Below, piece by piece: positions 1 to 20,067 of a DNA stretch of 64,000 nt (position 1 is its first letter; every line of letters starts with the position of its first letter). The notes under the pieces are model-generated. The model was not told the DNA's origin and made no database searches. It worked only from the letters and a program-made list of their open reading frames with translations. Where the stretch lies: the NCBI GenBank assembly GCA_964507395.1, contig CAZDQE010000004.1:1048-65047 (forward strand), given 5' to 3'. This DNA comes from an uncultured Eubacteriales bacterium. GTDB lineage: Bacteria > Bacillota > Clostridia > Oscillospirales > Acutalibacteraceae. Both the position numbers and the translations under genes were made by a program.

Positions 1-115
1 CTAACTGCTGACGGCATCGCAGGTCCGAAAACATGGGTAAAATTGTAATATAAACCACTAAAGTGTATTTTTTTCTAAAATATCGTAATATTTTCTTGAA
101 AAGTGTAAAATTTAT

Positions 116-160
116 CCCCCTATTGTAGTTAACGCTACAGTAGGGGGATTTTTTTATTTT
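116..160 (+). terminator. Rho-independent terminator of an upstream (off-window) + strand gene
   Basis: Stem CCCCCTATTGTAG / CTACAGTAGGGGG (one mismatch), loop TTAACG, followed by ATTTTTTTATTTT. Confidence 0.6.
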
Positions 161-241
161 GTATCGCATTTCGTTATAATATATCGTTTTCAGGTTTATT
201 ATAGAACATATTGATATAATATAACGGAAGGGGCGAGTCGT

Positions 242-487
242 GTGATTAGAATTTTACTTTCAAAAAAATTAGGCGAGCTTCGATGGACTCAGGCTGATTT
301 AGCGAGAAAGACGGGAATAAGACCTAACGCCATCAGCGACATATACAATGAGATGGTCGACAGAGTGAGTTTAGAATATCTCGACAGAATATGTGCTGCA
401 TTGAATTGTGAACTTTCTGAAATTCTCGTGCGAGAGCCCACGGAGATTCCAGAAATGGAAAGTCGCTCCAAATCAATCCAAAAGTAA
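242..487 (+). CDS. XRE/Cro-C1 family helix-turn-helix transcriptional regulator (81 aa, GTG start)
   Basis: The sequence LGELRWTQADLARKTGIRPNAISDIYN...VSLEYLDRICAALNCELSEIL is a typical HTH_XRE fold pattern. GGAAGGGG RBS upstream. Confidence 0.8.
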   Translation: MIRILLSKKLGELRWTQADLARKTGIRPNAISDIYNEMVDRVSLEYLDRICAALNCELSEILVREPTEIPEMESRSKSIQK

Positions 488-492
488 GAAAA

Positions 493-537
493 AGACCGTA
501 GAAGGCACCTGGAAAGGTGTTTTCTATGGTCTTTATT
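493..537 (+). terminator. Terminator of the XRE gene
   Basis: Stem AGACCGTAGAA / TTCTATGGTCT (one G-U) enclosing an inner CACCT/AGGTG stem, then a T-rich tail. Confidence 0.55.
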
Positions 538-550
538 ACTGATAACATGG

Positions 551-658
551 GTGTGCTAATTCTTCGGTGCCGATGTCAGTCAATAAACCTTTGAGTTCAG
601 GATAAGGCATTGCGAAACGCTGGCTCAAATATCGCAATGAAGCGCCAAGCTCACCATC
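551..658 (-). pseudogene. cotJC: cotJC middle fragment (about codons 33-69 of a CotJC/manganese-catalase-family spore coat protein)
   Basis: Minus-strand translation 658->551 is DGELGASLRYLSQRFAMPYPELKGLLTDIGTEELAH. It is colinear with the family region GG.DGEL.A.LRYL.QR....LLTDIGTEE.AH and has no start codon of its own. Confidence 0.8.
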
Positions 659-675
659 CCGACAACTGATTTTAT
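655..675. repeat. attL-like junction: core CATC (655-658) plus element-side arm CAACTGATTTTAT (663-675)
   Basis: The same 4-bp core occurs at the other junction. The arm is the inverted complement (12/13) of the arm at 10868-10880. Confidence 0.7.
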
Positions 676-701
676 AGTTTGTCTTTTTTATTCTTTTATT
701 T

Positions 702-2291
702 TTAATCAAACGGATTGCTGAATTTATAATTTATAACAATCTCATTTGACTTGTATATATAAATACTTTCTATCAATTGACCTATAAGTAAGGGCGAAAC
801 AGTATCAAAAGAAACAATGCTTTTTATTAATTCAAAAACCTGCTCAGGCTTTTTCTTTTCTTTTGCCTGAGTTGCTTCTTCTTCAATTTTTGAAAGTTTC
901 TTTGATAATGTTTCCTTTTCTTCGTTAAACTCTGAAATCATTGTCAAAAAATCTTCTTCTGATATTATTCCTCTTACTTTATCCTCATACAGAGATTTAA
1001 TTATTCGTTTTATTTCAGTTAATCGTTTCAATATCGTTTCTGTTTCTTTTTCTGCATTTACAGCATTCAAATCAACATTTTCAATATTGAAGCTTTTGCA
1101 AAATTCGTCTTTGTTGTCAAATACTTTTTCAGATATGGTTTTCAGATGTGATAAAACATATTTATTTAAAACATCTTCCTTTATAACATTTCTCTGACAT
1201 TTATCTTTTCCGAATCTTGAATAACCTGAACACAGACATATAAATTCTTTCTTTTTTCCTACTCGTCTGAATGTCATCGGCATTTTGCAGTCACCGCAGA
1301 AGATAATACCGCCTAATAAGTGATTTACTCGTTCAACTGGATATTGCAATTGTGATTTCTGCTTTATTCGTTCCTGAACGGTGTTAAAATCTTCTTTGCT
1401 GACAATAGCTTCGTGTGTATCTTCTGCTATTATCCAGTCTTTGCGAGGGATTTTCTTAAATTTTTTCATTTTATAGCTTATCTTCTCGCTTCTGTGCTGT
1501 GCCATGTTTCCTATATATGTAGGATTCGTCAAAATACCCTTTATGGTTTCCGTTCTCCATACATTGTATTTTATATTGACATTGACATAAGAAAGATTTT
1601 GAACAGTCTTTTTATACTCCGTCGGAGTAGGTACAGATTCATCTGTTAAAGTTTTTGCTATCATTGCCATACTGTAACCGTTTAAATACATTGAAAAAAT
1701 ACGTTTTACTGTTTCAGAACCAATAGGGTCAATAATCAGTTTGTTTTTATCATTTTTAGATTTCAAATACCCAAACGGAGCAAAAGCACCGATAAATTGA
1801 CCGTTAATTCTTTTTGTATCCATAACAGTACGAATTTTCTTTGATATGTCTTTTGCATACATGTCGTTTAATACGGACTTAAACGGTGTCATATCGTTGT
1901 TAGCAGATTTTGCAAATGTGTCTATACCGTCACTTAAAGCTATATATCTGATGTTTTTCTGTGGAAAGTATCTTTCAATATAATAGCCTGTGTCTATGTA
2001 ATCTCTGCCAAGTCTTGATAAGTCTTTAGTTATCACCAAATTAATTTTTTTGTTTTCTATGTCAGCAATCATCTTCCTGAAATCAGGGCGGTCAAAATTA
2101 AGACCTGAATATCCGTCATCAATATAGATTTTTGTAATATTCCAACCTTTTTCAAGAACATAATTAACTAAATAGTCTTTTTGATTTTTAATGCTCATTG
2201 ACTGTCCGCTTTCTTCATCTTCACGGGAAAGTCTTAAATATAGACCGACATTATAAACCATTGTATCTAAGCAGTTATTTTGAGTTATCAT
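702..2291 (-). CDS. Large serine recombinase (resolvase/invertase N-domain + recombinase domain + zinc ribbon + coiled coil), 529 aa
   Basis: N-terminal VGLYLRLSREDEESGQSMSIKNQ (catalytic Ser context). Central recombinase domain. Cys cluster CGDCKMPM...CLCSGYSRFGKDKCQ. Lys/Glu-rich coiled-coil tail. Confidence 0.9.
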   Translation of the reverse strand: MITQNNCLDTMVYNVGLYLRLSREDEESGQSMSIKNQKDYLVNYVLEKGWNITKIYIDDGYSGLNFDRPDFRKMIADIENKKINLVITKDLSRLGRDYIDTGYYIERYFPQKNIRYIALSDGIDTFAKSANNDMTPFKSVLNDMYAKDISKKIRTVMDTKRINGQFIGAFAPFGYLKSKNDKNKLIIDPIGSETVKRIFSMYLNGYSMAMIAKTLTDESVPTPTEYKKTVQNLSYVNVNIKYNVWRTETIKGILTNPTYIGNMAQHRSEKISYKMKKFKKIPRKDWIIAEDTHEAIVSKEDFNTVQERIKQKSQLQYPVERVNHLLGGIIFCGDCKMPMTFRRVGKKKEFICLCSGYSRFGKDKCQRNVIKEDVLNKYVLSHLKTISEKVFDNKDEFCKSFNIENVDLNAVNAEKETETILKRLTEIKRIIKSLYEDKVRGIISEEDFLTMISEFNEEKETLSKKLSKIEEEATQAKEKKKPEQVFELIKSIVSFDTVSPLLIGQLIESIYIYKSNEIVINYKFSNPFD

Positions 2292-2312
2292 TTAATCCTC
2301 CTTTTCCTCAAA

Positions 2313-2480
2313 TTAATAACTACTCATAGACTGATTATATTTTACACTATTTTCTGTTAATTGCCAATGTTTTAAAGGCATTTTAACAAGATTATTTATA
2401 TGTATTTCTACTATCTTTTTAAAACTTACTTCCTCTTTTGTATAGTTAGCTGTTACTATATATTTATTTTCATTGAACAT
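2313..2480 (-). CDS. Small hypothetical protein (55 aa from MFNENKY...) immediately upstream of, and co-oriented with, the serine recombinase
   Basis: ORF with a GAGGTGG RBS 6 nt before the ATG at 2480. No recognisable motifs. Its position is compatible with a regulator or directionality factor, but this is unproven. Confidence 0.35.
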   Translation of the reverse strand: MFNENKYIVTANYTKEEVSFKKIVEIHINNLVKMPLKHWQLTENSVKYNQSMSSY

Positions 2481-2629
2481 ATACACCACCTCAATAAATT
2501 TTATGTGATACATATGTTCAATATGTAAATATCAAAAAAACGCCCAGCATGGACGCGTTTTATTAATTATGAAGAGGGGAGTTTACCCCATTCAGACAAA
2601 GGTTGCCTGAATGGGGAGTGTCTTGTATA

Positions 2630-5600
2630 TTAGCTGATTTTAATTCGCATTGCAGGTCGAATACCGATAGAAGTATCTTCAGCAGGCCATTCTCTTCCAT
2701 AAAACTCACCGCCGACATGTCCTTCTAATCCAACACCGAGAGCATTGTTACTAAAAATTCCACCTGCTGTTCTAAGTCTCCAATACGATTTTCCACAGTC
2801 ATCGCCATAAAAATTAACATCTGACGGAACATATAAACCTTGACATTTAGCATAGTCTGTACCCCAAGCCACTCTTGATATATCTGAACCTTTACTTGAA
2901 AAACCATAATTTGAATTTAGTGCTTCATTGTATGATAACAAAAATATTTTATCTGATGTTGATTTACTACTGAATTCTTTGTAATCAGTATCTGAACAGT
3001 TATTACTAACTATTGTCGACTTAATTTGATTTTTTTCGTTATCGCTAAAAGCTACTTTGTAGAAATCATTATTTAACCATTTTCTTATTGAGCTAGTCTC
3101 ATAATTATTAGCATAGTGTTTGCAATTAGAATCACTGTATAATGATAAATAATAGTCAGAAGGATTTTCTTTATAATAAATTGTATCCGTGAATGGTTGA
3201 GAGTCAATTATACTTTCGCACATAGCAAGTCCATTATTGGGGTCTAAAATTCGCCATTTTAATGGCTCATACTTAAACCAATATATCGTATTCTTGTGAT
3301 AACCGTTTTCATATTGCCAAGACCAATCACGTTCTTGAGATTCTTGTACATCTGTTGGTCTATATTTAGAAAAAGTTACTGCACGATATTTATTGCCTTT
3401 ATATGTAACCTCAGCATATTTCATGTAGTCACTTTTTACCATTGAGCCATACTCGCCATTTCCTGAGTAATAGCCGTATGATTTCCAGTTTAATGTCTGA
3501 CTGTTAAGAGCAGAAATCAAGTTCCTATCGGTTACTTTAGACTGTGGATATGAGCCAAAAGTAATAACATCTCCAACCTTATATTTTGTAGTGCTTGTTT
3601 TGTCAGATTTATTAGAATTTGACTCATTTTGATTATTTTTCGACAACAAAACAGCCTCAACAAGCTTGATGTTTTCAGAATTAACATTAATACTAATATA
3701 CCGTGTATCAGTATCAAGTAAATAGTCATCATGGGTAAAATGTAACGAGTAAATACCATAAGGAAGATTAAGAGAAAACTGCCCGTTCTTGTCAGTTGTT
3801 ACCGTGGCTATCAAGTCAGCATTCTCGCTTTCATTGTCAGTTACCTTAACAGTAACCCCTGAAATTGCTTTTCCTGTTGATATATCCTTAACCGTTCCTA
3901 TCACATTACCCATCTTCGGGGACATATATACTGTATTAAGATTAACATTTTCTACATCTTTTTCTATAACAGTTTTAACGGTTTTTGTTACAAAGTTATC
4001 AGATGTTATTGTCAAAGTATATGTTCCGACAGGCAAAGTCAATTCAAATTTTCCCGTTTCATCTGTTACTGTAGTGCGTTTTGCACCGTTTACATCTACT
4101 GTAACAGTAATATTATTTAATGGCTTGTCTGTATCTTTTTCTTTAACAAAAGCTGTAACTGTACCATAACCGATATCAGTTCTACGTATTGCTTCTTCAA
4201 CAGCCAGTTTTGCATTTACCATTTTATATGTATTGTTTAATGGGTGTTTTCCGTCAGGGTTATCATTTACAGTAATTGATGTATAATTACATACCATTTC
4301 TTTTACTTCTGCACCTGTGAAATTAGAATTTACAGACCAAACTAAACCACATACACCTGTAACTTGCGGTGCAGCCATTGAAGTGCCACTCAATAGACCG
4401 TAATTGTTATCAACAGTTGTACTATATATATCAGTTCCTGGGGCGCAAATATCAACTCTTGTCCCACCATTTGAATCTATTGCTTGCTGATACGTACCGT
4501 CAGAATTCTTTTTTGCATTACCGACAACAATAATTCTGTTAAGTATATCATGCTTCATTTTTTCGGTTGAAGCAACAACATTATTTTCAGTAACAGAACA
4601 CCAATAGCCATTGTTTGTTGCGTCCACAGCAATTTGTTCAATTGTGTTTCGAGCAACTTCTACAGGAGTACCATTTCCTGATGACTGGACAACCAAAAAA
4701 TCATAATTATCATTTAATAAATTTTCCATAACTTGACAAGCTTTTTTAGCCTGTTCATCTTTCCAAGTTTGAGAAAAATTTACTGAACCTCGTTCACTGC
4801 TATATACAGAAACAAAACCATTGTTGTCTATTTCTGTGGCACCTGAACAACCCAAAGAAAAGTTAACAACTTTTGCTCCTTTTGTTACTGAATCTTCAAG
4901 AGATTTCAATACCCGTGAGGCTGAATCCCATTGTTGTTTTCCTTTGGTTTCATTTGGTAACCAGTCACTGTAAATTATATTAACTTTTTTTAATATACCA
5001 GTTATTCCTTTATTATCGGCTATAGAACCAATAATTCCTGCAACATGTGTGCCGTGACTATTAGTAATTTCTTTTTTCTGTTTCTCATTCCATTCTTTAT
5101 AGTCATTTTCGCTTTCCATATTTTCCGTTGACGGGGTAAAAATTCCATTTAAATCTTCATGGTCTAAATCAAAACCAGTATCAACAACACCTATTTCTAT
5201 TTCAGAAAATCGGTTTTCATAGTTATATACAGAAGAAACTTCCATAGCTTCATATCCCCAGTCACCGATATCTTCCCAATATTTATATGCTACCATTGAT
5301 TCCCGAATATCAGTATCTGGAACTACTTTATCCGCAGTATTTATCATTGCAGCGAAAACTTCGTCTTTTTCCTCTAACTCACTACTTATTTTTTTTAGTT
5401 CTTTATATGATTTTTCATCAATTTTGATATCCCAAATCGAACCGCCCCTGCCTGCAATTTCTCCATTATACGGTTTTATGATTTCAAGTATTTCATCTTC
5501 TGTGACATCATCTTCAAATATAACTAAAAGAATATTATTTACATAGGTTATACCAGTTTCTTCATCATATCTTACCTTGCTTTCGTCAAATGTATAGGAA

Positions 5601-5983
5601 GTTCCACTATCGTAATGAATATTAATTGTTTCTGTTGTACTTCCTTTATCAGTTTTAGCGGTAATAACAATTTCGTTTTCTCCAGAAACTAAAAATACTT
5701 CTTTGATATACCAATTGTTTTTATTGACTACAGCTTTTCCAGACCAATAAACATCTCCATTTTGATATCCCTCATAGATTATCTCCTCAACAGTATCAGA
5801 AGTTTCTATTGTTCCTGAAAGACTTGTTTTGCTTTTAATTGTGTCAAAGTCTTTTTGGTCAATGGTTAATTTTATGTTGCTGTTATTATCAGAGTTATTC
5901 AGACAAAATATAGCCACTATAATAGCCGAAACTACAACTGTTATAGCTAAAATTAGAATTAGCATTTTTTTCGATTTCTTCAT
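2630..5983 (-). CDS. Secreted subtilisin-like serine protease (peptidase S8), 1117 aa, with CarboxypepD_reg-like beta-sandwich repeats and a C-terminal FGSYPQ-type (DUF6273-like) domain
   Basis: N-terminal signal/anchor MKKSKKMLILILAITVVVSAIIV. Catalytic triad contexts VVDTGFDLDHEDL, HGTHVAGIIGS, GTSMAAPQVTG. Two GxV.D..TGK...V.V repeats. C-terminal VGDVITFGSYPQSKV... segment. Confidence 0.85.
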   Translation of the reverse strand: MKKSKKMLILILAITVVVSAIIVAIFCLNNSDNNSNIKLTIDQKDFDTIKSKTSLSGTIETSDTVEEIIYEGYQNGDVYWSGKAVVNKNNWYIKEVFLVSGENEIVITAKTDKGSTTETINIHYDSGTSYTFDESKVRYDEETGITYVNNILLVIFEDDVTEDEILEIIKPYNGEIAGRGGSIWDIKIDEKSYKELKKISSELEEKDEVFAAMINTADKVVPDTDIRESMVAYKYWEDIGDWGYEAMEVSSVYNYENRFSEIEIGVVDTGFDLDHEDLNGIFTPSTENMESENDYKEWNEKQKKEITNSHGTHVAGIIGSIADNKGITGILKKVNIIYSDWLPNETKGKQQWDSASRVLKSLEDSVTKGAKVVNFSLGCSGATEIDNNGFVSVYSSERGSVNFSQTWKDEQAKKACQVMENLLNDNYDFLVVQSSGNGTPVEVARNTIEQIAVDATNNGYWCSVTENNVVASTEKMKHDILNRIIVVGNAKKNSDGTYQQAIDSNGGTRVDICAPGTDIYSTTVDNNYGLLSGTSMAAPQVTGVCGLVWSVNSNFTGAEVKEMVCNYTSITVNDNPDGKHPLNNTYKMVNAKLAVEEAIRRTDIGYGTVTAFVKEKDTDKPLNNITVTVDVNGAKRTTVTDETGKFELTLPVGTYTLTITSDNFVTKTVKTVIEKDVENVNLNTVYMSPKMGNVIGTVKDISTGKAISGVTVKVTDNESENADLIATVTTDKNGQFSLNLPYGIYSLHFTHDDYLLDTDTRYISINVNSENIKLVEAVLLSKNNQNESNSNKSDKTSTTKYKVGDVITFGSYPQSKVTDRNLISALNSQTLNWKSYGYYSGNGEYGSMVKSDYMKYAEVTYKGNKYRAVTFSKYRPTDVQESQERDWSWQYENGYHKNTIYWFKYEPLKWRILDPNNGLAMCESIIDSQPFTDTIYYKENPSDYYLSLYSDSNCKHYANNYETSSIRKWLNNDFYKVAFSDNEKNQIKSTIVSNNCSDTDYKEFSSKSTSDKIFLLSYNEALNSNYGFSSKGSDISRVAWGTDYAKCQGLYVPSDVNFYGDDCGKSYWRLRTAGGIFSNNALGVGLEGHVGGEFYGREWPAEDTSIGIRPAMRIKIS

Positions 5984-6049
5984 TTTTACACACTCCTTAA
6001 ATTATTTGAAAGATAATGCATAATTCGCAAAAAGCTACGAAAAATAATG

Positions 6050-6062
6050 ATAAAATCAGTTG
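6050..6062. repeat. Third, internal copy of the serine-recombinase arm motif ATAAAATCAGTTG
   Basis: 13/13 identical to the reverse complement of 663-675 and 12/13 to 10868-10880. Lies between the S8 gene start and the left 28-bp inverted repeat. Confidence 0.7.
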
Positions 6063-6069
6063 ACCCCCT

Positions 6070-6097
6070 TTTTCGTGAAGTTTACAACTTTGCGAAA
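6070..6097. repeat. Left copy of a perfect 28-bp inverted repeat (TTTTCGTGAAGTTTACAACTTTGCGAAA) bracketing the tyrosine integrase gene
   Basis: Exact reverse complement of 7420-7447, checked base by base. Confidence 0.9.
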
Positions 6098-6142
6098 AAA
6101 AAGCAAGAAGCCCTGATTTTCAAGGTTTCTTGCTTTTTTTTG
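6094..6142. terminator. Bidirectional intrinsic terminator downstream of the integrase gene
   Basis: A-run, stem AAGCAAGAA / TTCTTGCTT, then T8. It reads as a terminator on both strands. Confidence 0.6.
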
Positions 6143-6158
6143 ACCCATTTTTTGACCC

Positions 6159-7250
6159 CTAAAAGCAAACCGCAAGTTTTTCTATATTCTGCTTTTTGTA
6201 CTCTATTGTAGGGTGTACATATCTATCTAATGTAAAGCTGACTGTTGAATGTCCCAGTATTTCGCTTAATGTTTTTATATCAATATTTTGTTCAACTGCT
6301 CTTGTTGCAAATGTATGTCTTAATGCATGATAATTAATATTTCTGATTCCTGTCTGTTCCAAATATCTTTTAAATCTGTATTGATATGCTCTCGGCTCTG
6401 TGTACTTTCTTTCATTACCTGTTAAAATATATTCTTTCGGCAAACTGTATTTTGATAATATTTTAAGTTCTGATAATAAAAATTCGGGAATAGGTATTTT
6501 TCTTATTGATTTTATACTCTTGGGAGTGTCTATTATAATTTTGGTCTTGTTTTCTGTGCTTTTATCTGTGACTGGTATTCTTTGAAGAGTTTTTGTAATG
6601 CTTATTATTCCTGTATTTAAATCTATATCCTGCCATTGTAAAGCACAGACTTCACCTAAACGAAGTCCTGCAAATAGTGATAATAAAATTCCTATATTTT
6701 CACGGTTAATATCTTGTTTGATTTTGTTTACTAAAAATTCCTGTTCGCTTTTGCTTAATACTTCTAAATCTTTCCTCGGTACGATAGGTCTTGCGAAATC
6801 GTATATTAAAGGTTGTATATATTTTTCTCTTTCTGCGTATTTCAATATCTGAACAAGTACAGCTGTTATATCCTGAATACTTTTTTCTCCTAACTTGCCC
6901 TGTTGTATCTTATATTTAATAAATGAATTTATATTGTTTCTGTCAATTTTAGATATATGAGTATTATTAAAATATGGTATAAGGTGTCTGTTCATTATTC
7001 CGTTATATCTTGCAATGGTAGATTGTTTATTTTTGATTTCTTTTTCTTTAAGCCACTCCTTACATAAGATTTCAAAGGATATTTTAGATTTTATCGGTTT
7101 ATCTTCTTTTAATTCTGATGTTCGCATTTTGCTTTTTACTTCGGTGTAGGTGGGAGCATAAATTGATTTATATTTGCCTGTATCAGTTAAAACTCTTGCT
7201 TCCCAACGTCCGTCTTTTCGTTTTCGTATATTTTCTCCTCGTTTCGGCAT
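6159..7250 (-). CDS. Tyrosine site-specific integrase with N-terminal arm-binding-type domain (363 aa)
   Basis: N-terminus RKRKDGRWEARV (Tn916-Int-like arm-binding fold pattern). Catalytic contexts AGLRLGEVCALQW, HALRHTFATRA, LGHSTVSFTLDRYVH (R..HxxR..H..Y). Confidence 0.9.
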   Translation of the reverse strand: MPKRGENIRKRKDGRWEARVLTDTGKYKSIYAPTYTEVKSKMRTSELKEDKPIKSKISFEILCKEWLKEKEIKNKQSTIARYNGIMNRHLIPYFNNTHISKIDRNNINSFIKYKIQQGKLGEKSIQDITAVLVQILKYAEREKYIQPLIYDFARPIVPRKDLEVLSKSEQEFLVNKIKQDINRENIGILLSLFAGLRLGEVCALQWQDIDLNTGIISITKTLQRIPVTDKSTENKTKIIIDTPKSIKSIRKIPIPEFLLSELKILSKYSLPKEYILTGNERKYTEPRAYQYRFKRYLEQTGIRNINYHALRHTFATRAVEQNIDIKTLSEILGHSTVSFTLDRYVHPTIEYKKQNIEKLAVCF

Positions 7251-7364
7251 AGATACCAGTCCTTTCTGACCCTTATTTTGACCCCCAATAAACAGAAAAA
7301 TGATGATGTTTTAATCTTTGAGAATAAAAATATCTTTCTGCACCTTCTAAATTAGCGTAAAATA

Positions 7365-7393
7365 TTGACATTTGCTGAAATTTTATATAAAAT
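7365..7393 (+). promoter_or_regulatory. Near-consensus sigma-A-type promoter (TTGACA-17 bp-TAAAAT) facing rightwards, just inside the right 28-bp inverted repeat
   Basis: TTGACA at 7365-7370, a 17-nt spacer, TAAAAT at 7388-7393. Confidence 0.45.
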
Positions 7394-7419
7394 TTAGGTG
7401 AAATAAGAAAGATTTTGGC

Positions 7420-7447
7420 TTTCGCAAAGTTGTAAACTTCACGAAAA
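7420..7447. repeat. Right copy of the perfect 28-bp inverted repeat
   Basis: TTTCGCAAAGTTGTAAACTTCACGAAAA is the exact reverse complement of 6070-6097. Confidence 0.9.
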
Positions 7448-7507
7448 TACAAGTATGTAATCTCATTTTTATGTTATAAATATATTCAATTAAATCCATT
7501 ATATTCC

Positions 7508-7536
7508 AGACAGGCTGAAAAGCTTGTCTTTTTTTG
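7508..7536 (+). terminator. Possible intrinsic terminator (weak stem) about 120 nt downstream of the 7365 promoter
   Basis: Stem AGACAGGC / GCTTGTCT (one G-U), loop TGAAAA, then a T run. Confidence 0.4.
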
Positions 7537-7621
7537 TCTGCAAGTGTTCTTTTTGGTTGATACAAAAGTGTTCTTTTTTATCAAGACACACCATAATATT
7601 AAAATAGGAAAAGTAAAGTCC

Positions 7622-7740
7622 GCAACTGCCTATATTACACACAAACGAAGTTTTACGAGTGTGAGGGGTCTCGACTTTGCACCCGAGACCCCTCACACTC
7701 ATCATGGTAAAACTTTTCGTTATGTGTGTTATGCAGTTGC
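7622..7740. repeat. ~120-nt imperfect palindrome with a perfect 17-bp core stem; candidate oriT or structured leader of the Replic_Relax operon
   Basis: Core GAGTGTGAGGGGTCTCG (7657-7673) / CGAGACCCCTCACACTC (7684-7700). Outer pairings ACACACAAACGAAGTTTTAC~GTAAAACTTTTCGTTATGTGTGT and GCAACTGC (7622-7629) / GCAGTTGC (7733-7740). Confidence 0.75.
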
Positions 7741-7801
7741 TGATGTGTTGTGTGTTTTGGTGTTTGTATTTGTTTGTTAGTTTAGTGTGTGGTGAGTTGT
7801 T

Positions 7802-8431
7802 GTGGGTATAAGATTAGTTGAGAGAGATTATTTAATATTAAGAGAGATAGACAGGTGGAGAGTAATTACAGGTAAGCAGATATGTAAGGTAGCTGGATTT
7901 TCGGGTCAGAGGTCTTGCGACAGAAGGCTTCATAAGCTTTTGATTGCCGGGATTCTTGACAGAAAGCGAATATTATACGGAATCCCGGCAATCTATGAAT
8001 TGACCCCAAGGGGAAAAGCCATTATCGGTATACCGATAAAAAACGAGCGTGTACGAGTTGAACAAATCGTACACGATATGGCCGTATTGGATACGGCTAT
8101 ATATTTCAGCCATAAATATGCAATTGCCTTTTCAGATATTAAATCTGAAAAACAATTACATAAACAAGACGGGTTTGCTGTTCGCAAGCACCGCCCCGAC
8201 TTTGTTTTCACAAAGAATAACAAATCTTTTTGTGTCGAGGTCGAGCTTACAATGAAATCAAAGGAAAGATTTAGTAAAAATATTATTGCTAACTTTACAG
8301 ATTACTATATTCAAATATGGGTAGTTCCTGACTTTAATTCAAAAATATATGCGTTTCTTTGTGAGATGAAAGAAAGCTATCCAAATATAAAAATCATTGA
8401 TATTAATGAGGTGAAGTCTTATAACGTTTGA
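7802..8431 (+). CDS. Replication-relaxation (Replic_Relax) family protein, 209 aa, GTG start
   Basis: N-terminal winged-helix pattern LVERDYLILREIDRWRVITGKQI...CDRRLHKLLIAGILDRKR...YELTPRGKAI. C-terminal nuclease-like HD..RPDFVF...CVEVELTMKSKER. Confidence 0.7.
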   Translation: MGIRLVERDYLILREIDRWRVITGKQICKVAGFSGQRSCDRRLHKLLIAGILDRKRILYGIPAIYELTPRGKAIIGIPIKNERVRVEQIVHDMAVLDTAIYFSHKYAIAFSDIKSEKQLHKQDGFAVRKHRPDFVFTKNNKSFCVEVELTMKSKERFSKNIIANFTDYYIQIWVVPDFNSKIYAFLCEMKESYPNIKIIDINEVKSYNV

Positions 8432-9828
8432 AGCTTTATTTAATCGGTTTAACTAAATACGGAAATGCAATTTTACTTACAGTTATGGCAATAGCCTTGT
8501 TTTTCATTTGCCTTGAAGCAAGAAAAAGCTTGATTATAAAGAAGCATTTTAACTTTTGGAGAGATTTAAAAGCTATGAACAGGAAAATAAAGCCTAATTT
8601 AACAAGTAGTAAAGACAGCACTTTTTTAGGCTACAGCCACAAAAAGCCTGTATACATTCCCGATAATTGCAAACATTGCTTTGTTTGCGGTACAACAGGA
8701 AGCGGAAAGACCGTTGTTCTTTCAAACTTCATCAAGCATGGTGCAGAAATGAAATACCCCATGCTTATAGTTGACGGCAAGGGCGATATTGGAAACGGCT
8801 CAATTTTGGAAATAACAAAGCATTTTGTAAACAGGCAAAAATTATATGTTATAAACCTTGCAGACCCGATAAAATCTGATAAATACAACCCTTTCAGATA
8901 TGCAAGTCCGACAATGTGCAAGGATATGCTGATTAATATGACGGAGTGGAGCGAAGAACACTATAAACTGAATACAGAAAGATATCTGCAAAGGCTTATT
9001 ATACTGTTACAGCAAAATGACATTCCCCTGTCGTTCAACACTATTATTAATAATATGAGTGTTGCGAATTTCAACGCTTTAAGTTCAAGGTTGCTGAAAG
9101 CTGAAATAATAAGCAAGCAAGAACATTTATTAAACCTTAATATTTCTGATACTTGCGGTAAAATCGCACAAAATGCAAGTGCAAGGTTCAGCACTATTGC
9201 AGAAAGTGAGTTCGGCTCAATATTTGCTGATAACGGAATAGACATATACACGGCAATTAAAGAAAACGCAGCTATATTGTTTGTTTTAAATCCTTTACTT
9301 TATCCTGAAATTTCACCTTTAATGGGTAAACTGATATTAATTGATGCTAAACAAGCAGTAAATAAATGTTTTAATTCAGGACTTGAAAGAGCGTTTTACA
9401 TATTTGACGAGATAAATAGTTATGCTTCACCGACTTTAATAGATTTAATAAACAAGTCAAGAAGTGCAAATATTACATCAATACTTGCAACACAAAGTTT
9501 GTCGGATTTAGATTTTGCCTGTAATGAAGCATTTAAAGAACAAGTAATAGAAAATACAAATAATTATATTGTTTTAAGACAGAACAGTTCTGTAAATTCC
9601 GAGCATTGGGCGAATGTTTTAGGAACAAAGTCAACTATTGATGTAACTTATCAATTACAACAAAGGGGGTATTTAGAAACATCTGAAACAGGTTTAGGAA
9701 GTGCAAGACGTGTAAGAGAATTTTTATATCACCCTGATGATATTAAGATTTTACAGGTTGGAAAAGGTATTTTTATGTCAAAGGATAACGGCTATCACTC
9801 AAAAATAGATATTATAAAGCCATTTTAG
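8428..9828 (+). CDS. Type IV coupling protein-like ATPase (VirD4/TraG/TraD family, TraM-recognition-domain type), 466 aa
   Basis: N-terminal TM segment. Walker A CGTTGSGKT. Walker B YIFDEINSY. ILATQSLSDL motif typical of the FtsK/TraG superfamily. Start overlaps the upstream stop. Confidence 0.8.
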   Translation: MKLYLIGLTKYGNAILLTVMAIALFFICLEARKSLIIKKHFNFWRDLKAMNRKIKPNLTSSKDSTFLGYSHKKPVYIPDNCKHCFVCGTTGSGKTVVLSNFIKHGAEMKYPMLIVDGKGDIGNGSILEITKHFVNRQKLYVINLADPIKSDKYNPFRYASPTMCKDMLINMTEWSEEHYKLNTERYLQRLIILLQQNDIPLSFNTIINNMSVANFNALSSRLLKAEIISKQEHLLNLNISDTCGKIAQNASARFSTIAESEFGSIFADNGIDIYTAIKENAAILFVLNPLLYPEISPLMGKLILIDAKQAVNKCFNSGLERAFYIFDEINSYASPTLIDLINKSRSANITSILATQSLSDLDFACNEAFKEQVIENTNNYIVLRQNSSVNSEHWANVLGTKSTIDVTYQLQQRGYLETSETGLGSARRVREFLYHPDDIKILQVGKGIFMSKDNGYHSKIDIIKPF

Positions 9829-9840
9829 GAGGTTTGTTTT

Positions 9841-10710
9841 ATGGAGAAAAGAGGCGGATTTTTCAAATCAAATTGGGCATATTTAGTATGGTTTGCAATT
9901 TATTATACTATCGCAGTTTTTCTGATTTATATGTGTACAAGCGATTTTGTAATAAGCTTTTTTCTATCTTTTTTCATTTATGGTGCTTCTGTAGGACTTG
10001 CATTATCTCCTGTTGGAGAAAGTATATTACGGTTAATGCAGGGAATTAAACCAATTCAGACAGAACAAGACAGAGAATATTTAATGCCGATTTTTGAAGA
10101 AGTGTATGCAGAAGCTTTAAAATTCACTCCCGAACTAAACGAAGATATCGAACTATACATATCTGAAAGTATGACAGTAAATGCCTTTGCTATCGGAAGA
10201 AAGACAATAGCAGTAACAAGAGGAGCAATATATACCTTTAGTCCCGAGGAATTAAAGGGAATATTATCCCATGAATTCGGTCATATGGCGAATGGTGATA
10301 CAAAAGCCTTACTTATTAATGTAGTAGGAAACGGATTTTTCTCTTTAATAATCTTTGTTTTTCGGTTTATAATGTTGTTAATACAAAATATTACGGTTGC
10401 TTTTAGCGGTAAAAATATTGTTGTTGCTGTACTTGCAATAATTTCATTTTTATTCAGATTACTTGTTGATTTAGGAATAATTGTGTTTGTTTTCTTGGGT
10501 AATGTGATTTTAGCACTCAATAGCAGATACAGTGAACTGCTTGCTGATGAATACGCTTTTCAAATCGGCTATGGCGAAGAACTAAAGAATTCTTTGTATA
10601 TAATCAGTAAATTGAGTTTACCTGAAAAATTAACGCTTATGGAACGCTTGACAGCTTCACACCCATATACAACAGCAAGAATTGAAAAACTTGAAGAATT
10701 AGGGGCTTAA
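9841..10710 (+). CDS. Membrane M48-family (HtpX-like) zinc metalloprotease, 289 aa
   Basis: HEFGHMANGD (HExxH), several TM segments, C-terminal SHPYTTARIEKLEE typical of M48. Confidence 0.8.
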   Translation: MEKRGGFFKSNWAYLVWFAIYYTIAVFLIYMCTSDFVISFFLSFFIYGASVGLALSPVGESILRLMQGIKPIQTEQDREYLMPIFEEVYAEALKFTPELNEDIELYISESMTVNAFAIGRKTIAVTRGAIYTFSPEELKGILSHEFGHMANGDTKALLINVVGNGFFSLIIFVFRFIMLLIQNITVAFSGKNIVVAVLAIISFLFRLLVDLGIIVFVFLGNVILALNSRYSELLADEYAFQIGYGEELKNSLYIISKLSLPEKLTLMERLTASHPYTTARIEKLEELGA

Positions 10711-10721
10711 ACAAGCCACAA

Positions 10722-10830
10722 TATCCCATACCCCTTAATTGATAATACTGCCAAAAGTAAGAAAATCAGACTTGCAAAACGCAGGTCTGATTTTCGCTTT
10801 TGGCATATTCTTTCTTTTGGGTATGGGATA
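10722..10830. repeat. Three-tier 109-bp palindrome at the right end of the element; the inner hairpin functions as a bidirectional terminator
   Basis: Outer TATCCCATACCC (10722-10733) / GGGTATGGGATA (10819-10830). Middle GCCAAAAG / CTTTTGGC. Inner GAAAATCAGAC(TTGC) / (GCAG)GTCTGATTTTC with A/T flanks. Confidence 0.75.
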
Positions 10831-10867
10831 ATATTTTAGTCAAGAGTAGTTATTAATTTGATGTGTC

Positions 10868-10886
10868 ATAAAATCAGTGGTTCATC
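10868..10886. repeat. attR-like junction: element-side arm ATAAAATCAGTGG (10868-10880) plus core CATC (10883-10886)
   Basis: Mirror image of the junction at 655-675. Confidence 0.7.
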
Positions 10887-10982
10887 GGGTCCGCCATACT
10901 GAGTAATAATGATTTTTGCAAGCTTCGGATTGGGATTCTTAATATTTACAGGATACTGTAATCTCTTTTCATATTGGAACAT
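10884..10982 (-). pseudogene. cotJC: cotJC N-terminal fragment (codons 1-33); as it stands the frame ends at 10866 after 5 foreign codons
   Basis: Minus-strand translation is MFQYEKRLQYPVNIKNPNPKLAKIIITQYGGPD, then EPLIL-stop. The ATG overlaps the cotJB stop (TAATG). Confidence 0.85.
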
Positions 10983-11242
10983 TAGCAGTCACAACCTTCT
11001 TTCTCCCATGGCCATGGGTTTTTAATCCATTCAACGCCCTGTGCGTTAGTAGTTGAAAGCTTCCAGCATTTTTCTTCAAATTCCTCGCGAAGCATCAGAT
11101 ATTTTTCTTTATATTTATTATAAAGTGCAATGGCTTCCGTATCGCATGTATGTGTGTCAAGATAAAGGTGAAGATCCCACATGACAAATGCAGTTGCAGA
11201 AAGCTGCCTTAAAAGATCATTGTTTCTCATCATTTGCAACAA
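10982..11242 (-). CDS. cotJB: Spore coat protein CotJB
   Basis: Family hallmark FVMWDLHLYLDTHTCDTEAIALYNKY. 86 aa. Sits between a CotJA-like ORF and the cotJC start. Confidence 0.85.
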   Translation of the reverse strand: MLQMMRNNDLLRQLSATAFVMWDLHLYLDTHTCDTEAIALYNKYKEKYLMLREEFEEKCWKLSTTNAQGVEWIKNPWPWEKEGCDC

Positions 11243-11493
11243 CCTCCGAGAAAAGGCTTGTCGAGGCAGGGGAATGCTGTTCCTCTTTCCAATGCTTTAC
11301 ATTCATCATAAAGCTCCGTCATTTCCTGAAAAGGCACAAATGCCATAGCTACCGGTGTACATTCGGGAAATTTTCCTTCGGGCTGAATACAACATTTTTT
11401 TACATAACTATAGTTGCTTCTGTCCGTTTGTCTGTAGTAATTGTCACGCATCATACGAGAATTACCTGACGAATAATCATACATTCTTTGCAA
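11230..11493 (-). CDS. cotJA: Spore coat-associated protein CotJA
   Basis: VAMAFVPFQEMTELYDECKALERGTAFPCLDKPF matches the CotJA pattern (AMAYVP.Q...Y....AL..GT.FP.L..PF). The start may be the TTG at 11493 or the ATG at 11484. Confidence 0.8.
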   Translation of the reverse strand: MQRMYDYSSGNSRMMRDNYYRQTDRSNYSYVKKCCIQPEGKFPECTPVAMAFVPFQEMTELYDECKALERGTAFPCLDKPFLGGCCK

Positions 11494-11598
11494 AATGATT
11501 CTCCTTTCATAAGTTTATTCATTATTATGTTATGTGCTTTGTCCCAAAGTGTGAAAATAAGTTGCAAAAAAGCGGCAAGTTTAAACTTACCGCTTTCT

Positions 11599-12414
11599 TT
11601 AATATGTTGCTTCAAATGTTGTTTTATAAACCATTCCGAAACCTTGGTTATAGCCTATGTATAAATCGTCATTCACAAGGAAAATATTTTCACTTTCGTA
11701 TTGTGCAGCTTCATCGTTGAGTTCGAAAACACCGTAATGGTTTCCGTTCCAATCATAAACTGAAATTGCGTTAGGAAAGCTCAGAAGAAAATATAAATAT
11801 TTATCGTCACTGTCCATGCCTTGCTTCGTTGTAGATTTCGGTTTGACTCCCTTGATCGTTTCAATCACATTAAAATCTTTATCAAGTATCGCAAAATCAA
11901 AAGTGTAGGAAATGCCCACGGCATATCTGTTTGTTTTAGCGTTATATGTGATTGAATAAATTTCAAGGGGAATCTCTACAGTTTCAATAATTTCCAGCGT
12001 GTCCTTGTCAACAAAAGACACAAGAGTTCTGTTTGGAGAGTTGTGACAAACCACAAGACATTTTTTATCTTTATTATATGCAATATCATTTCCGTGGTCA
12101 ACCTTTACAACCTCTGCTCTTGCCACTTCTTCCCATGTTTCGAGGCTGTATTTAGAGATTGAACAAACATTTGCGTAACTGTTGTTAGAACAGAAATAAG
12201 CATATTTTCCGTCAGTACAACCTCCTTGAAGGATTGTCTGACTGGCGTAATGCAAATCTTCAAGCACAAGCTCGGAAGAAAATGAGATTTCCTTTACTGA
12301 AGAAAAATCAATATCATCAAAACCGTTGTTATATACGTTAATACCGAAAAAGCTCAGTATTGACATAAAGAAGGATAATAAAACTGAAATAAAATTTGTA
12401 AGAACAGGGGACAT
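11599..12414 (-). CDS. Hypothetical membrane-anchored/secreted protein (271 aa), possibly beta-propeller-like
   Basis: N-terminal hydrophobic segment. No recognisable catalytic motifs. Long uninterrupted ORF followed by a hairpin at about 11565-11598. Confidence 0.5.
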   Translation of the reverse strand: MSPVLTNFISVLLSFFMSILSFFGINVYNNGFDDIDFSSVKEISFSSELVLEDLHYASQTILQGGCTDGKYAYFCSNNSYANVCSISKYSLETWEEVARAEVVKVDHGNDIAYNKDKKCLVVCHNSPNRTLVSFVDKDTLEIIETVEIPLEIYSITYNAKTNRYAVGISYTFDFAILDKDFNVIETIKGVKPKSTTKQGMDSDDKYLYFLLSFPNAISVYDWNGNHYGVFELNDEAAQYESENIFLVNDDLYIGYNQGFGMVYKTTFEATY

Positions 12415-12430
12415 ACCGTCAACTCCTTAA

Positions 12431-13075
12431 TTACTGCATTTTTTCCTGTTTGATTTTTTTGTCAATAATATGACGCTTTGAAAGCTCTGTTGTAACATCA
12501 TCAAGTGTGATGCCCATTTCAATCATCATAACCATTACATGATAAGCAAGGTCAGCAATTTCATAAATTGTTTCGGCTTTGTCGCCGCCTTTAGCACCGA
12601 TGATAACCTCGGTACATTCTTCGCCTACCTTCTTGAGTATTTTATCAATACCTTTTTCAAAAAGGTAAGTTGTGTACGAGCCTTCTTTTTTCTGGGTTTT
12701 TCTGCCAACGAGCATATCGTAAAGTCCCGGATATGAGAAAGCGTTTTCTTTTGACGGTTCAACAATATCGTTGAAGAAACAGCTCTCACTTCCCGTATGA
12801 CAGGCAGGACCTTCTTTAATTACATCTACAAGAAGAGTGTCCATATCGCAGTCAGTTCTGATTGATACAATATTCTGCACATTACCTGATGTTGCACCTT
12901 TTCTCCAGAGCTCCTGTCTGCTTCTGCTGAAGAAGCAGGTTTTTCCTTCTTCTATACTGATTCTAAGACTTTCTTCATTCATGTATGCAAGCATAAGAAC
13001 TTTTTTGGTGTAAAAATCCTGTACAATTGCAGGAATGAGCCCTTTTTCATCATATTTTAACTCTTTAATATCCAT
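12431..13075 (-). CDS. hisIE: Bifunctional phosphoribosyl-AMP cyclohydrolase / phosphoribosyl-ATP pyrophosphatase
   Basis: GLIPAIVQD...CDMDTLL..V...[10 protein letters not shown] (HisI) followed by a HisE-like helical domain. Last gene of the his operon. Confidence 0.9.
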
Positions 13076-13086
13076 AGTAATTCTCC

Positions 13087-13842
13087 TTATATTCTCATCT
13101 CGATGTTATTTTCAATGAGATAGTTTTTCAAATCCTTGATCGAAAGTTCTTTTCTGTGGAAAATTGATGCTGCAAGTCCTGCATCAGAACAATTTTCGTT
13201 GAACAGGTGAAGAAAATCTTCTTTTTTGCCTGCACCGCCGCTTGCAATAACAGGAACAGAAACTCTTTCGGAAATAGCTTTAAGCATTTCAATGTCGAAT
13301 CCCTGTTTAATTCCGTCAGTGTCAATACTGTTGACAACAAGCTCGCCTGCACCGCGTTTTTCACCGTCAACTGCCCACTGAATAGCTTCAATACCTGTGT
13401 CAATTCTGCCACCGTTTTTGAAGATATGGAACTCACCGTCAACTCTCTTGATGTCCATGGAAAGAACTACACACTGGTCACCGTATTTTTTTGCAGCCTG
13501 AGTAATAAGCTCAGGGTTATTAATTGCGCCTGAATTAACAGATACTTTGTCAGCACCGCATTTTAAAACTATGTCAAAATCATCAACTGTGTTGATACCT
13601 CCGCCGACTGTAAGTGGAATAAAAATTTCAGATGCAACTTTTGCAAGAACATCAGTAAATAAACCTCTGCCTTCGTGTGAAGCAGTAATGTCATAGAAAA
13701 CAAGCTCATCCGCACCGCTGTCGTTATAGAAATGAGCAAGCTCGACAGGGTCAGCAACATCCTGAATTCCCTCGAAATTTACACCCTTAACAACTCGTCC
13801 GTTTCTGACATCGAGGCAGGGGATTATTCTTTTTGTAATCAT
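13087..13842 (-). CDS. hisF: Imidazole glycerol phosphate synthase cyclase subunit
   Basis: [31 protein letters not shown] signatures. Confidence 0.95.
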
Positions 13843-14567
13843 TATAAAATCTCCCCCTTCGCGATTTTGAGAACTCTTTCAAGGTCAAGTTTACCTGCAT
13901 AAACAGCCTTACCTACAATTGCACCGTAAGTGTTCATAGAAGTCAGTTTTTTGATTTCTTCTTCAAATGTAATACCGCCTGACGCGATAATATCAAGGTT
14001 TTTTATTTCTGCAAGTTTCTCATAAATTTCAAGATTTGTGCCCGAAAGTGTGCCGTCCTTTGAAATATCAGTGTAAATTACCGTTTTTACACCTGCATCA
14101 CGAAGCTTACGGCAAAAATCCAGTGAATCGATTTCTGTTGTTTCAAGCCAACCGCTGACAGCAACTTTGCCGTTTCGAGCATCAACGCCAACTGCAATCT
14201 TATCACCGTGTTTTTTTACGGCTTCTTCGACAAATTTAAAATTACGCACTGCGACAGTGCCGAGGATTACTCTGTTAACACCGAGGGAAAGATAATCTTC
14301 AATTCTTTTTTCGTCACGGATACCGCCGCCGACCTCAGTGAAAAGTTTACCTGTTTCGGCAACACTTTTAATTACATCGAAGTTTACGGGTGCACCGTCT
14401 TTGGCACCGTCGAGGTCAACCATGTGAAGATTTTTTGCACCTTTTTTTATAAATGCTTCAGCCATTTCGAGTGGACTTGAGCCGTAAACAGTCATTCTGT
14501 TGTAGTCACCCTCGGTAAGTCTTACAACATTACCGTTTCTGATATCTATAGCGGGAAAAATTTCCAT
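13842..14567 (-). CDS. hisA: ProFAR isomerase (1-(5-phosphoribosyl)-5-[(5-phosphoribosylamino)methylideneamino]imidazole-4-carboxamide isomerase)
   Basis: IFPAIDIRNGNVVRL..GDY, VGGGIR, ASGGI motifs. Start overlaps the hisF region. Confidence 0.9.
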   Translation of the reverse strand: MEIFPAIDIRNGNVVRLTEGDYNRMTVYGSSPLEMAEAFIKKGAKNLHMVDLDGAKDGAPVNFDVIKSVAETGKLFTEVGGGIRDEKRIEDYLSLGVNRVILGTVAVRNFKFVEEAVKKHGDKIAVGVDARNGKVAVSGWLETTEIDSLDFCRKLRDAGVKTVIYTDISKDGTLSGTNLEIYEKLAEIKNLDIIASGGITFEEEIKKLTSMNTYGAIVGKAVYAGKLDLERVLKIAKGEIL

Positions 14568-14579
14568 TTCTTTTCCTCC

Positions 14580-15188: not shown

Positions 15189-15203
15189 ATTTAAAACCTC
15201 CGA

Positions 15204-16861: not shown

Positions 16862-16876
16862 AAATGAAATACCTTC

Positions 16877-19889: not shown

Positions 19890-20067
19890 AAGGATACACC
19901 CCCAAAATAAATATACTATAATATTATACTATAATTCACCGCTTTAGTAAAGTAAAACATTTCAAAAAATGATAGATATTTTTGTATAAAAATCCTATAA
20001 AGTTGTATAAAATGACAGTGTTTCACGGCAGGGCAAAATCATCAGCCTTTCAGGTCGTGAAGGCTAT

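Follow-up and report, generated by a model that had tools for sequence, protein, structure and literature searches.

The spore-coat gene cotJC of an uncultured Eubacteriales bacterium is in three pieces as the result of two independent site-specific insertions. Two of the pieces, the whole of one inserted element (element 1) and one end of the other (element 2) lie in the stretch of DNA analyzed here (contig CAZDQE010000004.1, positions 1,048 to 65,047; hereafter the window, 64,000 nucleotides (nt) in length), where the cotJ genes and the cotJC pieces all occupy the minus strand. The third piece is found on a separate metagenome contig, L173. In silico, the three pieces sum exactly to one intact cotJC of 200 codons, and once joined they are the 200-amino-acid (aa) allele carried by a member of the same species (L084/P0001). 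A preliminary description of the window had reported a single 10.2-kb skin-like element in cotJC, bounded by a 4-base-pair (bp) core and inverted arms and equipped with its own large serine recombinase (LSR), whose excision would rebuild the gene.

Two site-specific insertions divide cotJC

The cotJ region of the window, read from the promoter side, consists of the following features:

11526-11552, minus strand: sigma-K-type promoter match ACACTTTGGGACAAAGCACATAACATA, which has the form AC-N17-CATAnnnTA (a match to the consensus only)
11230-11493, minus strand: cotJA (Pfam PF11007 CotJA, E = 4.3e-17)
10982-11242, minus strand: cotJB (Pfam PF12652 CotJB, E = 3.3e-23); the probable start is the ATG at 11233, giving 83 aa as in the gene tables of L082-L085
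10884-10982, minus strand: cotJC piece 1, codons 1-33 (found by tblastn; 99 of 99 nt match the intact L084 allele)
10883-10886: crossover core at the promoter-proximal junction of element 1, CATC on the plus strand and GATG in the coding sense (from the L084 overlap; the same in L002)
659-10882: element 1, 10,224 bp, absent from L084
655-658: crossover core at the distal junction of element 1, CATC on the plus strand (from the L084 alignment)
560-658, minus strand: cotJC piece 2, codons 33/34-65 (99 of 99 nt identical to L084 2697-2795)
560-562: crossover core of element 2, TTC on the plus strand, GAA (codon 65) in the gene (from window 536-570 compared with L173 915-1005 and L084)
1-559: right end of element 2, prophage-like, with an attachment (att) arm at 536-559

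The start of cotJC is as the preliminary description gave it, with an ATG at 10982-10980 overlapping the cotJB stop (TAATG). The minus-strand frame then reads MFQYEKRLQYPVNIKNPNPKLAKIIITQYGGPD, beyond which similarity to CotJC ends; the gene table of contig L082 calls this piece as a 38-aa Mn_catalase stub. The continuation lies 10.2 kb away, where the minus strand from 658 to 551 translates as DGELGASLRYLSQRFAMPYPELKGLLTDIGTEELAH (DGELGAS...TEELAH), and the CATC cores, the inverted arms and the 529-aa recombinase gene beside the left junction were likewise confirmed in the sequence. As had been expected, the peptide obtained by joining the two pieces (68 aa) is colinear with the CotJC family, aligning with Pfam Mn_catalase over positions 1-69 (E = 2.8e-23).

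The split is proven by an allele of the same species in which the site is empty. An exact look-up of the CotJA protein, which occurs as an identical copy on four Logan contigs, led to same-species contigs in sibling samples, and one of these, L084, carries cotJA, cotJB and an uninterrupted cotJC of 200 codons. In blastn, L084 1-2700 corresponds to window 13582-10883 (99.6% identity) and L084 2697-2795 to window 658-560 (100%), and the two alignments overlap by 4 nt, GATG. L084 thus aligns to both flanks with exactly the predicted 4-bp overlap, which confirms the att core, the terminal inverted repeat and the in-frame join, and supplies the uninterrupted relative that the preliminary description had foreseen. 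Contigs from close relatives (L086 and L087) show the undisturbed gene order, which runs from the his operon through cotJA, cotJB and intact cotJC to galT.

A metagenome assembly could in principle have fused a mobile element to a fragment of cotJC, and the data are metagenomic, with one Logan contig ending at window position 1 and others breaking at 6099 and 10191. We nevertheless regard such a chimera as having practically no chance of being the explanation. Over 1-6099, 6070-7434 and 10191-21493 the window is matched at 100% identity by the Logan contigs L001, L082 and L088 of the matching sample, and L001 and L082 between them contain the junctions at both codon 33/34 (site 1) and codon 65 (site 2), which amounts to an independent assembly of these junctions. 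Around a variant of element 1, those of site 1 are seen again at ~98-99% identity in L083/L184 and L085/L185, from two further samples, and the same architecture is present in diverged sequence in L002, L004 and L006. These independent contigs and recurrent junctions exclude an assembly artefact. As to the contig ends themselves, they fall at window position 1 (L001), at 6099, which is 30 nt inside the repeat that begins at 6070, and at 10191 (L082); the start of the window may coincide with a contig end in the source assembly.

The second break became apparent from the same comparison. Identity to the intact allele ends at window position 560, after ...ACCGAAGAA; past this point the window reads TTAGCACAC (LAH) where the gene has CTTGGGCAT (LGH), and a stop follows four codons on. 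Because identity is lost at 560, window 1-559 must be the end of a second inserted element, and of the frame from 658 to 551 that had been assigned to the gene, only the part down to 560 derives from cotJC, whereas 559-551 (LAH) comes from element 2. In agreement with this, CotJC residues 1-33 and 33-67 are the sole parts of the protein that tblastn finds in the window, and the remaining 135 codons gave no tblastn match there. A protein search with the expected C-terminal stub recovered a 130-aa gene call (P0121, 100% identical) on contig L173, whose sample is also the source of the window-identical contigs. The locus (L173 1-1370) begins with the final 312 residues of a second LSR (LSR2; Recombinase and Zn-ribbon domains); the junction ...TGTACAGAC|GAACTTGGGCAT... 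follows, then cotJC codons 65-200, and beyond them galT. Only ~18 bp separate the end of the LSR2 coding sequence (L173:3-941) from the crossover core at 960. Excision of element 1 would therefore restore the frame at the first joint, as L084 demonstrates and as had been proposed, but with a second break at codon 65 it would not by itself rebuild cotJC.

Gene content and recombinases of the two elements

Element 1 has a G+C content of 32.4%, compared with 38-39% in the host, and its genes indicate an integrative, probably mobilisable, non-phage element. Its features, followed by two from element 2, are:

10868-10880: att arm ATAAAATCAGTGG, an inverted copy of 663-675, conserved in L002, L083 and L085
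9841-10710, plus strand: M48-family membrane metallopeptidase, cargo (PF01435, E = 4.8e-21)
8428-9828, plus strand: type IV coupling protein-like ATPase, mobilisation module (PF10412 TrwB_AAD_bind, PF12696 TraG-D_C)
7802-8431, plus strand: Replic_Relax protein, putative relaxase or replication initiator (PF13814, E = 3.1e-6; phrog_2190, replication initiation)
7420-7447: 28-nt near-palindromic site, a perfect inverted copy of 6070-6097 (100% complementary)
6159-7250, minus strand: tyrosine recombinase, conserved backbone gene (PF00589, PF14659)
6070-6097: 28-nt near-palindromic site TTTTCGTGAAGTTTACAACTTTGCGAAA (from a repeat search)
2630-5983, minus strand: secreted S8 subtilase of 1117 aa with CarboxypepD_reg repeats and DUF6273, variable cargo (Pfam)
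2540-2556, minus strand: intrinsic terminator-like hairpin behind the S8 gene
2498-2526, minus strand: sigma-E-type promoter match ACATATT-N14-CATAAAAT, 13/15 to ZHATAXX-14-CATACAHT (consensus only)
2313-2480, minus strand: conserved 55-aa open reading frame (ORF; MFNENKY...), candidate directionality factor or LSR partner (gene call on L001)
2339-2367, minus strand: sigma-70-type promoter match TTGGCA-17-TAAAAT, 10/12, inside the 55-aa ORF and upstream of the LSR start
702-2291, minus strand: LSR1, large serine recombinase of 529 aa, TnpX type (PF00239, PF07508, PF13408)
663-675: att arm CAACTGATTTTAT
242-487, plus strand: XRE/helix-turn-helix (HTH) gene of element 2 (HTH_26/HTH_3)
1-47: last 15 codons of an ORF of element 2 that leaves the window

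The serine recombinase, S8 protease, tyrosine integrase and Replic_Relax/coupling-protein module had all been listed in the preliminary description, from which the M48 peptidase and the 55-aa ORF were missing. A PHROG scan of element 1, with the S8 protease set aside, returned no convincing phage structural, packaging or lysis gene; the matches were to integrase families, to a replication-initiation family and, weakly and partially, to a terminase large subunit (E = 8e-6), the last of which falls on the coupling-protein ATPase. Pfam searches found no MobV relaxase in the element, and no resistance gene was recognised among its annotated genes, no search for resistance genes having been made.

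The backbone of element 1 is colinear with that of an element in L002, a Clostridia genome from rabbit gut. Identities to the L002 proteins are 59% for the M48 peptidase, 73% for the coupling protein, 65% for Replic_Relax, 62% for the tyrosine recombinase, 38% for the small ORF and 73% for the LSR; across L002 and L083, the coupling protein is 73-83% and Replic_Relax 64-65% identical. The cargo position of the L002 element is taken by a different large secreted protein in place of the S8 protease. In L002, moreover, the element splits cotJC at this very codon; its core is identical and its arms almost so, and codons 33-189 are intact beyond it.

LSR1 carries all three domains of its family (PF00239 at residues 17-165, PF07508 at 192-311 and PF13408 at 325-384) as well as the nucleophilic serine motif YxRLSRxD, its YLRLSRED aligning with YERLSRDD of TnpX, which by sequence marks it as a large serine recombinase. 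Among solved structures, the TnpX catalytic domain comes closest (E = 2e-30 over 110 residues, a comparison confined to that domain), followed by the TP901-1 integrase and SPbeta SprA (E = 6e-17, LSR1 residues 12-464). The LSR1 gene ends 43 bp inside the distal junction, and in both elements the LSR gene sits at the end of the element beside the downstream cotJC piece and points in the same direction as cotJC.

The att sites of element 1 combine a shared 4-bp core with an imperfect dyad, as is usual for large serine recombinases. In the reconstructed attP, ...CTATAAAATCAGTTGTCGG GATG AACCACTGATTTTATGAC..., 13 of 20 positions are complementary, which makes it an imperfect palindrome centred on GA; this GA, part of the shared GATG, is most probably the crossover dinucleotide of LSR1. 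The crossover maps to one short stretch, GATGG(T/A)GA (codons 33-35), in the window, L083/L085, L002, L004, L005 and L006. For excision at either site, the predicted junctions are:

Site 1: attB1 GGCGGACCCGATGGTGAGCTTGGC; attP1 AAAATCAGTTGTCGGGATGAACCACTGATTTTAT
Site 2: attB2 GGCACCGAAGAACTTGGGCAT; attP2 GAATGTACAGACGAATTAGCACACCCATG

In L003, an LSR 64% identical to LSR1 is accompanied by a similar att arm (CATAAAATCAG...) at 11540-11600 that lies outside cotJC, in a flanking frame reading ...YTIQEMSEELGRNNGHQMGG.

The conserved tyrosine recombinase of element 1 forms a cassette of its own, bracketed by the inverted 28-nt sites. An inverted pair of 28-30-nt sites with a 12-3-12 layout likewise brackets the tyrosine recombinase in L002 (4583-4612 and 5972-6001), L175 and L181; the site sequence is identical within each element and different between elements. 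These sites may be recombination sites, operators or resolution sites. Two other views of the cassette were considered and set aside: a recent nested insertion sequence is opposed by the presence of the cassette at the same place in L002 and five metagenome elements, and frequent inversion, as in an invertible switch, is opposed by the single orientation seen in all six or seven copies. The Logan contig breaks at 6099 and 7434 are compatible with a branching assembly graph where the repeat meets its outer flank, and not with an inversion.

Element 2, judged by its sequence, is a temperate-phage-like element with its own LSR at codon 65; its phage content is read from the 559 bp in the window, which hold the XRE gene, and from phage relatives at the same site. 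Its att arm is homologous to the arm of the IMG/VR prophage L099, which has baseplate, tail and endolysin genes, occupies the same cotJC site and carries a 68%-identical XRE gene, and to the arms of the elements at this site in L056, L068, L070 and L075. In related genomes (L186/L187) the same site is occupied by a temperate prophage with a CI-type S24 repressor, HTH genes and RecT, whose integrase shares 78% identity with LSR2. The recombinases at site 2 of L006 and L068 share 37-41% with LSR2, and LSR1 shares 23%. A blastn search of window 1-560 against GenBank phages gave no match. Prophage L099 also encodes a reverse transcriptase (4277-5353, phrog_1423) adjoining its tail genes, a position that suggests a diversity-generating retroelement.

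Mobility of the elements and interruption of sporulation genes in relatives

Within one species, compared through flanks that are 98-99.6% identical, the two sites are found in four states of occupancy: both are empty in L084, L086, L087 and L089-L092; site 1 is occupied and site 2 intact in L184/L185, the partners of L083/L085; site 2 is occupied in L186-L189; and both are occupied in the window together with L173. The four states indicate that elements 1 and 2 are independent of each other, recently mobile and not fixed. The variant of element 1 in L083/L085 has an LSR 99% identical to LSR1 and different cargo at the other end. Truncated CotJC gene calls of 130 aa and 152 aa are common among close relatives in the protein collection.

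This distribution bears on whether the insertion is simply dead, that is, a decayed remnant unable to excise that has left cotJC a pseudogene in this lineage. The gene is broken twice and the window itself shows no sign of activity, as such a reading would have it, yet we judge it very improbable. LSR1 is full length with its three domains and recurs at 99% identity in another strain beside different cargo, neither the att arms nor the core show damage and both are conserved in L002, each cotJC piece matches the uninterrupted allele at 100%, and empty sites coexist in the species with variant elements, which indicates recent insertion. Taken together, a dead insertion and an artefact retain only a very small residual probability.

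The possibility that element 1 is fixed in its host lineage and co-diverges with it as skin does was also rejected. Between the window and L002, the host proteins CotJB and CotJC are 28% and about 59-67% identical, compared with 59-73% for the LSR and backbone proteins of the element. Since the host proteins, CotJB above all, are far more diverged than the element, we conclude that element 1 moves between hosts. The term skin-like in the preliminary description is therefore misleading to the extent that it implies a fixed, domesticated remnant, because element 1 is polymorphic, probably mobilisable and horizontally moving.

To place LSR1 among its relatives, we took its best 80 matches in GTDB species genomes and checked representatives against NCBIfam, with one flank inspected per locus outside cotJ. 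At least 31 of these 80 closest relatives lie in or by sporulation genes (cotJB/JC, sigK, spoIVA, pdaB-like), distributed as follows:

(i) Fourteen are in the cotJ operon (cotJB/cotJC).

(ii) Ten adjoin a pdaB-like deacetylase that lacks its N-terminus (L017, L019-L022, L024, L025, L029, L039, L042).

(iii) Five adjoin a C-terminally truncated sigK, the classical skin situation (L046, L047, L049, L064, L067), and are ~39% identical to LSR1.

(iv) Two adjoin a spoIVA fragment that starts at profile position 118 (L052, L069).

Another five of the 80 adjoin YkuD-like (L009, L012), collagen-like (L008, L010) or SleB-like (L038) genes, and all these relatives beside truncated genes other than those of cotJ are 37-49% identical to LSR1. 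In gut Clostridia the LSR1 clade clearly favours sporulation genes of the mother cell, and the survey suggests that interruption of such genes is much commoner in gut spore formers than the characterised cases imply. We found no paper that describes spoIVA or pdaB as an interrupted gene.

The cotJ operon is itself hit repeatedly. At nine loci (L045, L048, L056, L059, L068, L070, L071, L072 (5200-5400, 11545-11660) and L075), cotJB is split at the conserved PW|PWE by elements with LSRs ~42% identical to LSR1, and at four of these (L056, L068, L070, L075) cotJC is broken at codon 65 as well. In L068 (2230-1900, minus strand), cotJC appears to be broken yet again after ...YYTDHGVG (~codon 103), with a recombinase fragment further on. 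The operon thus presents three to four distinct sites served by distinct LSR lineages. Counting cotJB PW|PWE and cotJC codons 33/34, 65 and ~103, at least four sites each with an LSR lineage of its own, one might regard the operon in gut Clostridia as a multi-site landing pad. Two or three unrelated elements, in the present case a mobilisable non-phage element and a temperate phage, would have to leave the same mother cell's chromosome before its coat genes were rebuilt, a multi-lock developmental switch that doubles as a release for transfer. We put this forward as a speculation that is on the whole doubtful; if it were true, excision of a mobilisable element would release it for transfer from the lysing mother cell.

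Proposed excision during sporulation and comparison with known systems

We lean towards a reading, drawn by analogy with known systems, in which excision of the elements is coupled to sporulation and cotJC is rebuilt in the mother cell. Each LSR would excise its own element precisely in the terminally differentiated mother cell, in time for cotJC to be rebuilt before its sigma-K-type promoter fires, and the forespore chromosome would retain both elements. For element 1, the trigger would probably be the 55-aa ORF, a candidate directionality factor that has the sigma-E-like match and the terminator ahead of it, with LSR1 made from its own sigma-70-like promoter match; directionality factors as a group are not known to have a common fold. 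Excision as a circle would at the same time start mobilisation, for which the Replic_Relax and coupling proteins would serve.

Several observations are consistent with this scheme. The sigma-K-type match (AC-N17-CATAACATA) lies ~35 nt upstream of the cotJA start and is one of four exact matches in 128 kb (the 64-kb window on both strands); in C. difficile, expression of the cotJ-like operons depends on sigma-K (PMC3789822), and from B. subtilis and C. difficile we infer mother-cell expression of cotJC. In 17 further loci a homologue of the small ORF immediately precedes the LSR (L002-L009, L013, L015, L031, L032, L035, L036, L056, L068, L075). The sigma-E-type match ahead of the ORF is one of 23 in 128 kb, and 2.6% of shuffles of the local 200 nt yield one; in the regions compared ahead of the small ORF, the reverse strand has none at the 13/15 cut-off. 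Exact sigma-K-type matches occupy the equivalent place in L004 and L006, so that three of six elements have a sigma-E- or sigma-K-like match upstream of the small ORF, and L002 has at the homologous place an equivalent of the sigma-70-type match, TTGGAA-17-TACAAT.

Other findings weigh against a sporulation programme. The 55-aa ORF has no Pfam or PHROG match, and its homologues also accompany LSRs outside cotJ. The equivalent region of L002, L003 and L005 contains no match that reaches 13/15, and the promoter evidence as a whole consists of Bacillus consensus matching in AT-rich DNA. TnpX, the nearest characterised LSR, has neither a directionality factor nor a link to sporulation. Rebuilding requires two independent excisions in one cell, and L173, although it comes from the same sample, has no physical link to the window. 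A search for attP1 (AAAATCAGTTGNCNNGATGAACNACTGATTTT) in JGI metagenome contigs and IMG/VR gave no match, but these collections are not the source of the organism and the result carries no information. Finally, cotJ mutants of B. subtilis have mild phenotypes, so that a knockout could be tolerated.

The last point leads to the chief alternative, which we consider a real possibility that stops short of being probable: the elements, an ordinary mobilisable element and an ordinary temperate phage, use cotJC as a safe harbour without any developmental programme, carriers make spores without CotJC, and excision is sporadic or accompanies induction or transfer (cf. Tn4451). The LSRs would then have evolved to recognise the most conserved DNA of a dispensable gene that is silent in growing cells. 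Such a reading accords with elements that are polymorphic and horizontally mobile, with the closeness of LSR1 to TnpX, which needs no directionality factor, and with the lack of any excision product in the contig collections scanned. The sites in cotJC, which adjoin DGE and TEE..H (taken here to be conserved metal-ligand motifs), and the site in cotJB, within PWPWE, are good broad-host attB sequences, and up to three insertions in one operon (L068) are expected if the first removed selection. Dispensability leaves unexplained, however, why the LSR clade is biased towards many mother-cell genes, including the essential sigK and spoIVA. The interrupted cotJC pieces examined from several distant hosts show no stop or frameshift before the junction, the gene is kept intact at 200 codons in many relatives, and the sigma-E/K-like matches recur upstream of the small ORF in three of six elements, all of which speak against a harbour. 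Were excision uncoupled from sporulation, the locus would amount to an ordinary pair of insertions in a dispensable gene.

Structurally, to judge from sequence, the locus has the make-up of the sporulation-gene intervening elements (skin/SPbeta/vfbin/vrin/gin/yin), and the comparison with characterised systems can be summarised as follows:

(i) In skin/SpoIVCA (sigK of B. subtilis) and skinCd/CD1231 (C. difficile), as here, an LSR lies inside the element that splits a mother-cell gene, and excision restores the frame. In skinCd, CD1231 is made constitutively and the small sigma-E-dependent factor CD1234 sets the timing (PMC5025042); the promoter matches in element 1 suggest a similar layout of constitutive LSR and timed small factor. 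Unlike skin, the target here is a coat protein and no regulator, element 1 is non-phage and polymorphic, and cotJC carries two elements with two unrelated LSRs (23% identity).

(ii) In SPbeta, the LSR SprA and the small factor SprB, encoded directly upstream of it, belong to an element that splits spsM, which contributes to the spore surface and is expressed late in the mother cell (PMC4191935, PMC5499854). As with CD1231 and CD1234, SprA is made constitutively and SprB provides the timing (PMC5499854), a layout that the one in element 1 resembles. SPbeta is an active mobile element, as both elements appear to be here, and element 2, to judge by its relatives, is probably a temperate phage too; however, SprA has low similarity to LSR1 (E = 6e-17), element 1 has no phage genes, and no double insertion is described for spsM.

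(iii) The gin element in gerE (B. cereus ATCC 10987) is described as a non-prophage element with a serine recombinase that is excised in sporulation (PMC5595907). Element 1, for its part, is 10.2 kb long and has a mobilisation module, a tyrosine recombinase cassette and secreted or membrane proteases.

(iv) Tn4451/Tn4453 (TnpX) and Tn5397 (TndX) are clostridial mobilisable or conjugative transposons, and Tn4451 is non-phage and excises as a circle. For integration and excision alike, its LSR, which acts at a GA dinucleotide, does without a directionality factor (Guedon et al. 2017, PMC5704250). Element 1 shares with it the closest recombinase, TnpX, and the GA central dinucleotide, but Tn4451 uses many GA sites, whereas the LSR1 family hits the same codon in six hosts, and the mobilisation genes are MobV/TnpZ in Tn4451 as against Replic_Relax and the coupling protein here.

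The preliminary description had known of no characterised element in cotJC, and we too found none in the literature; nor did we find any report of a single cotJC that holds two elements, or any mention of the cotJB site. As an integration target, however, cotJC is already known: it is cited as such from Abe et al. 2013 by Kohm et al. 2021 (bioRxiv 10.1101/2021.11.22.469490). The C. difficile prophage phi027 lies beside cotG/CDR20291_1465, a CotJC homologue. The twofold interruption by a probably mobilisable element and a prophage-like one is of moderate interest, as are the natural empty-site alleles and the bias of the LSR clade. If excision is coupled to sporulation, gene rebuilding in the mother cell would be seen to operate also in uncultured Clostridia of the gut, with an element that is mobilisable rather than phage-derived, and in a gene that must lose two insertions independently. 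The exact attB, attP, attL and attR of two serine recombinases are in hand together with natural empty alleles, which makes the prediction directly testable, and the system may interest both research on sporulation in the microbiota and the use of serine integrases as genome-engineering tools.

Two minor observations remain. The exact-protein look-up that found CotJA returned no record for the XRE protein, the 84-aa version of CotJB or the M48 peptidase. Elsewhere in the window, by the his operon, the gene table of L082 places a gene on the plus strand at 20068-21294 for a 408-aa protein that combines Phage_min_cap2 and ADP-ribosylating exotoxin domains.

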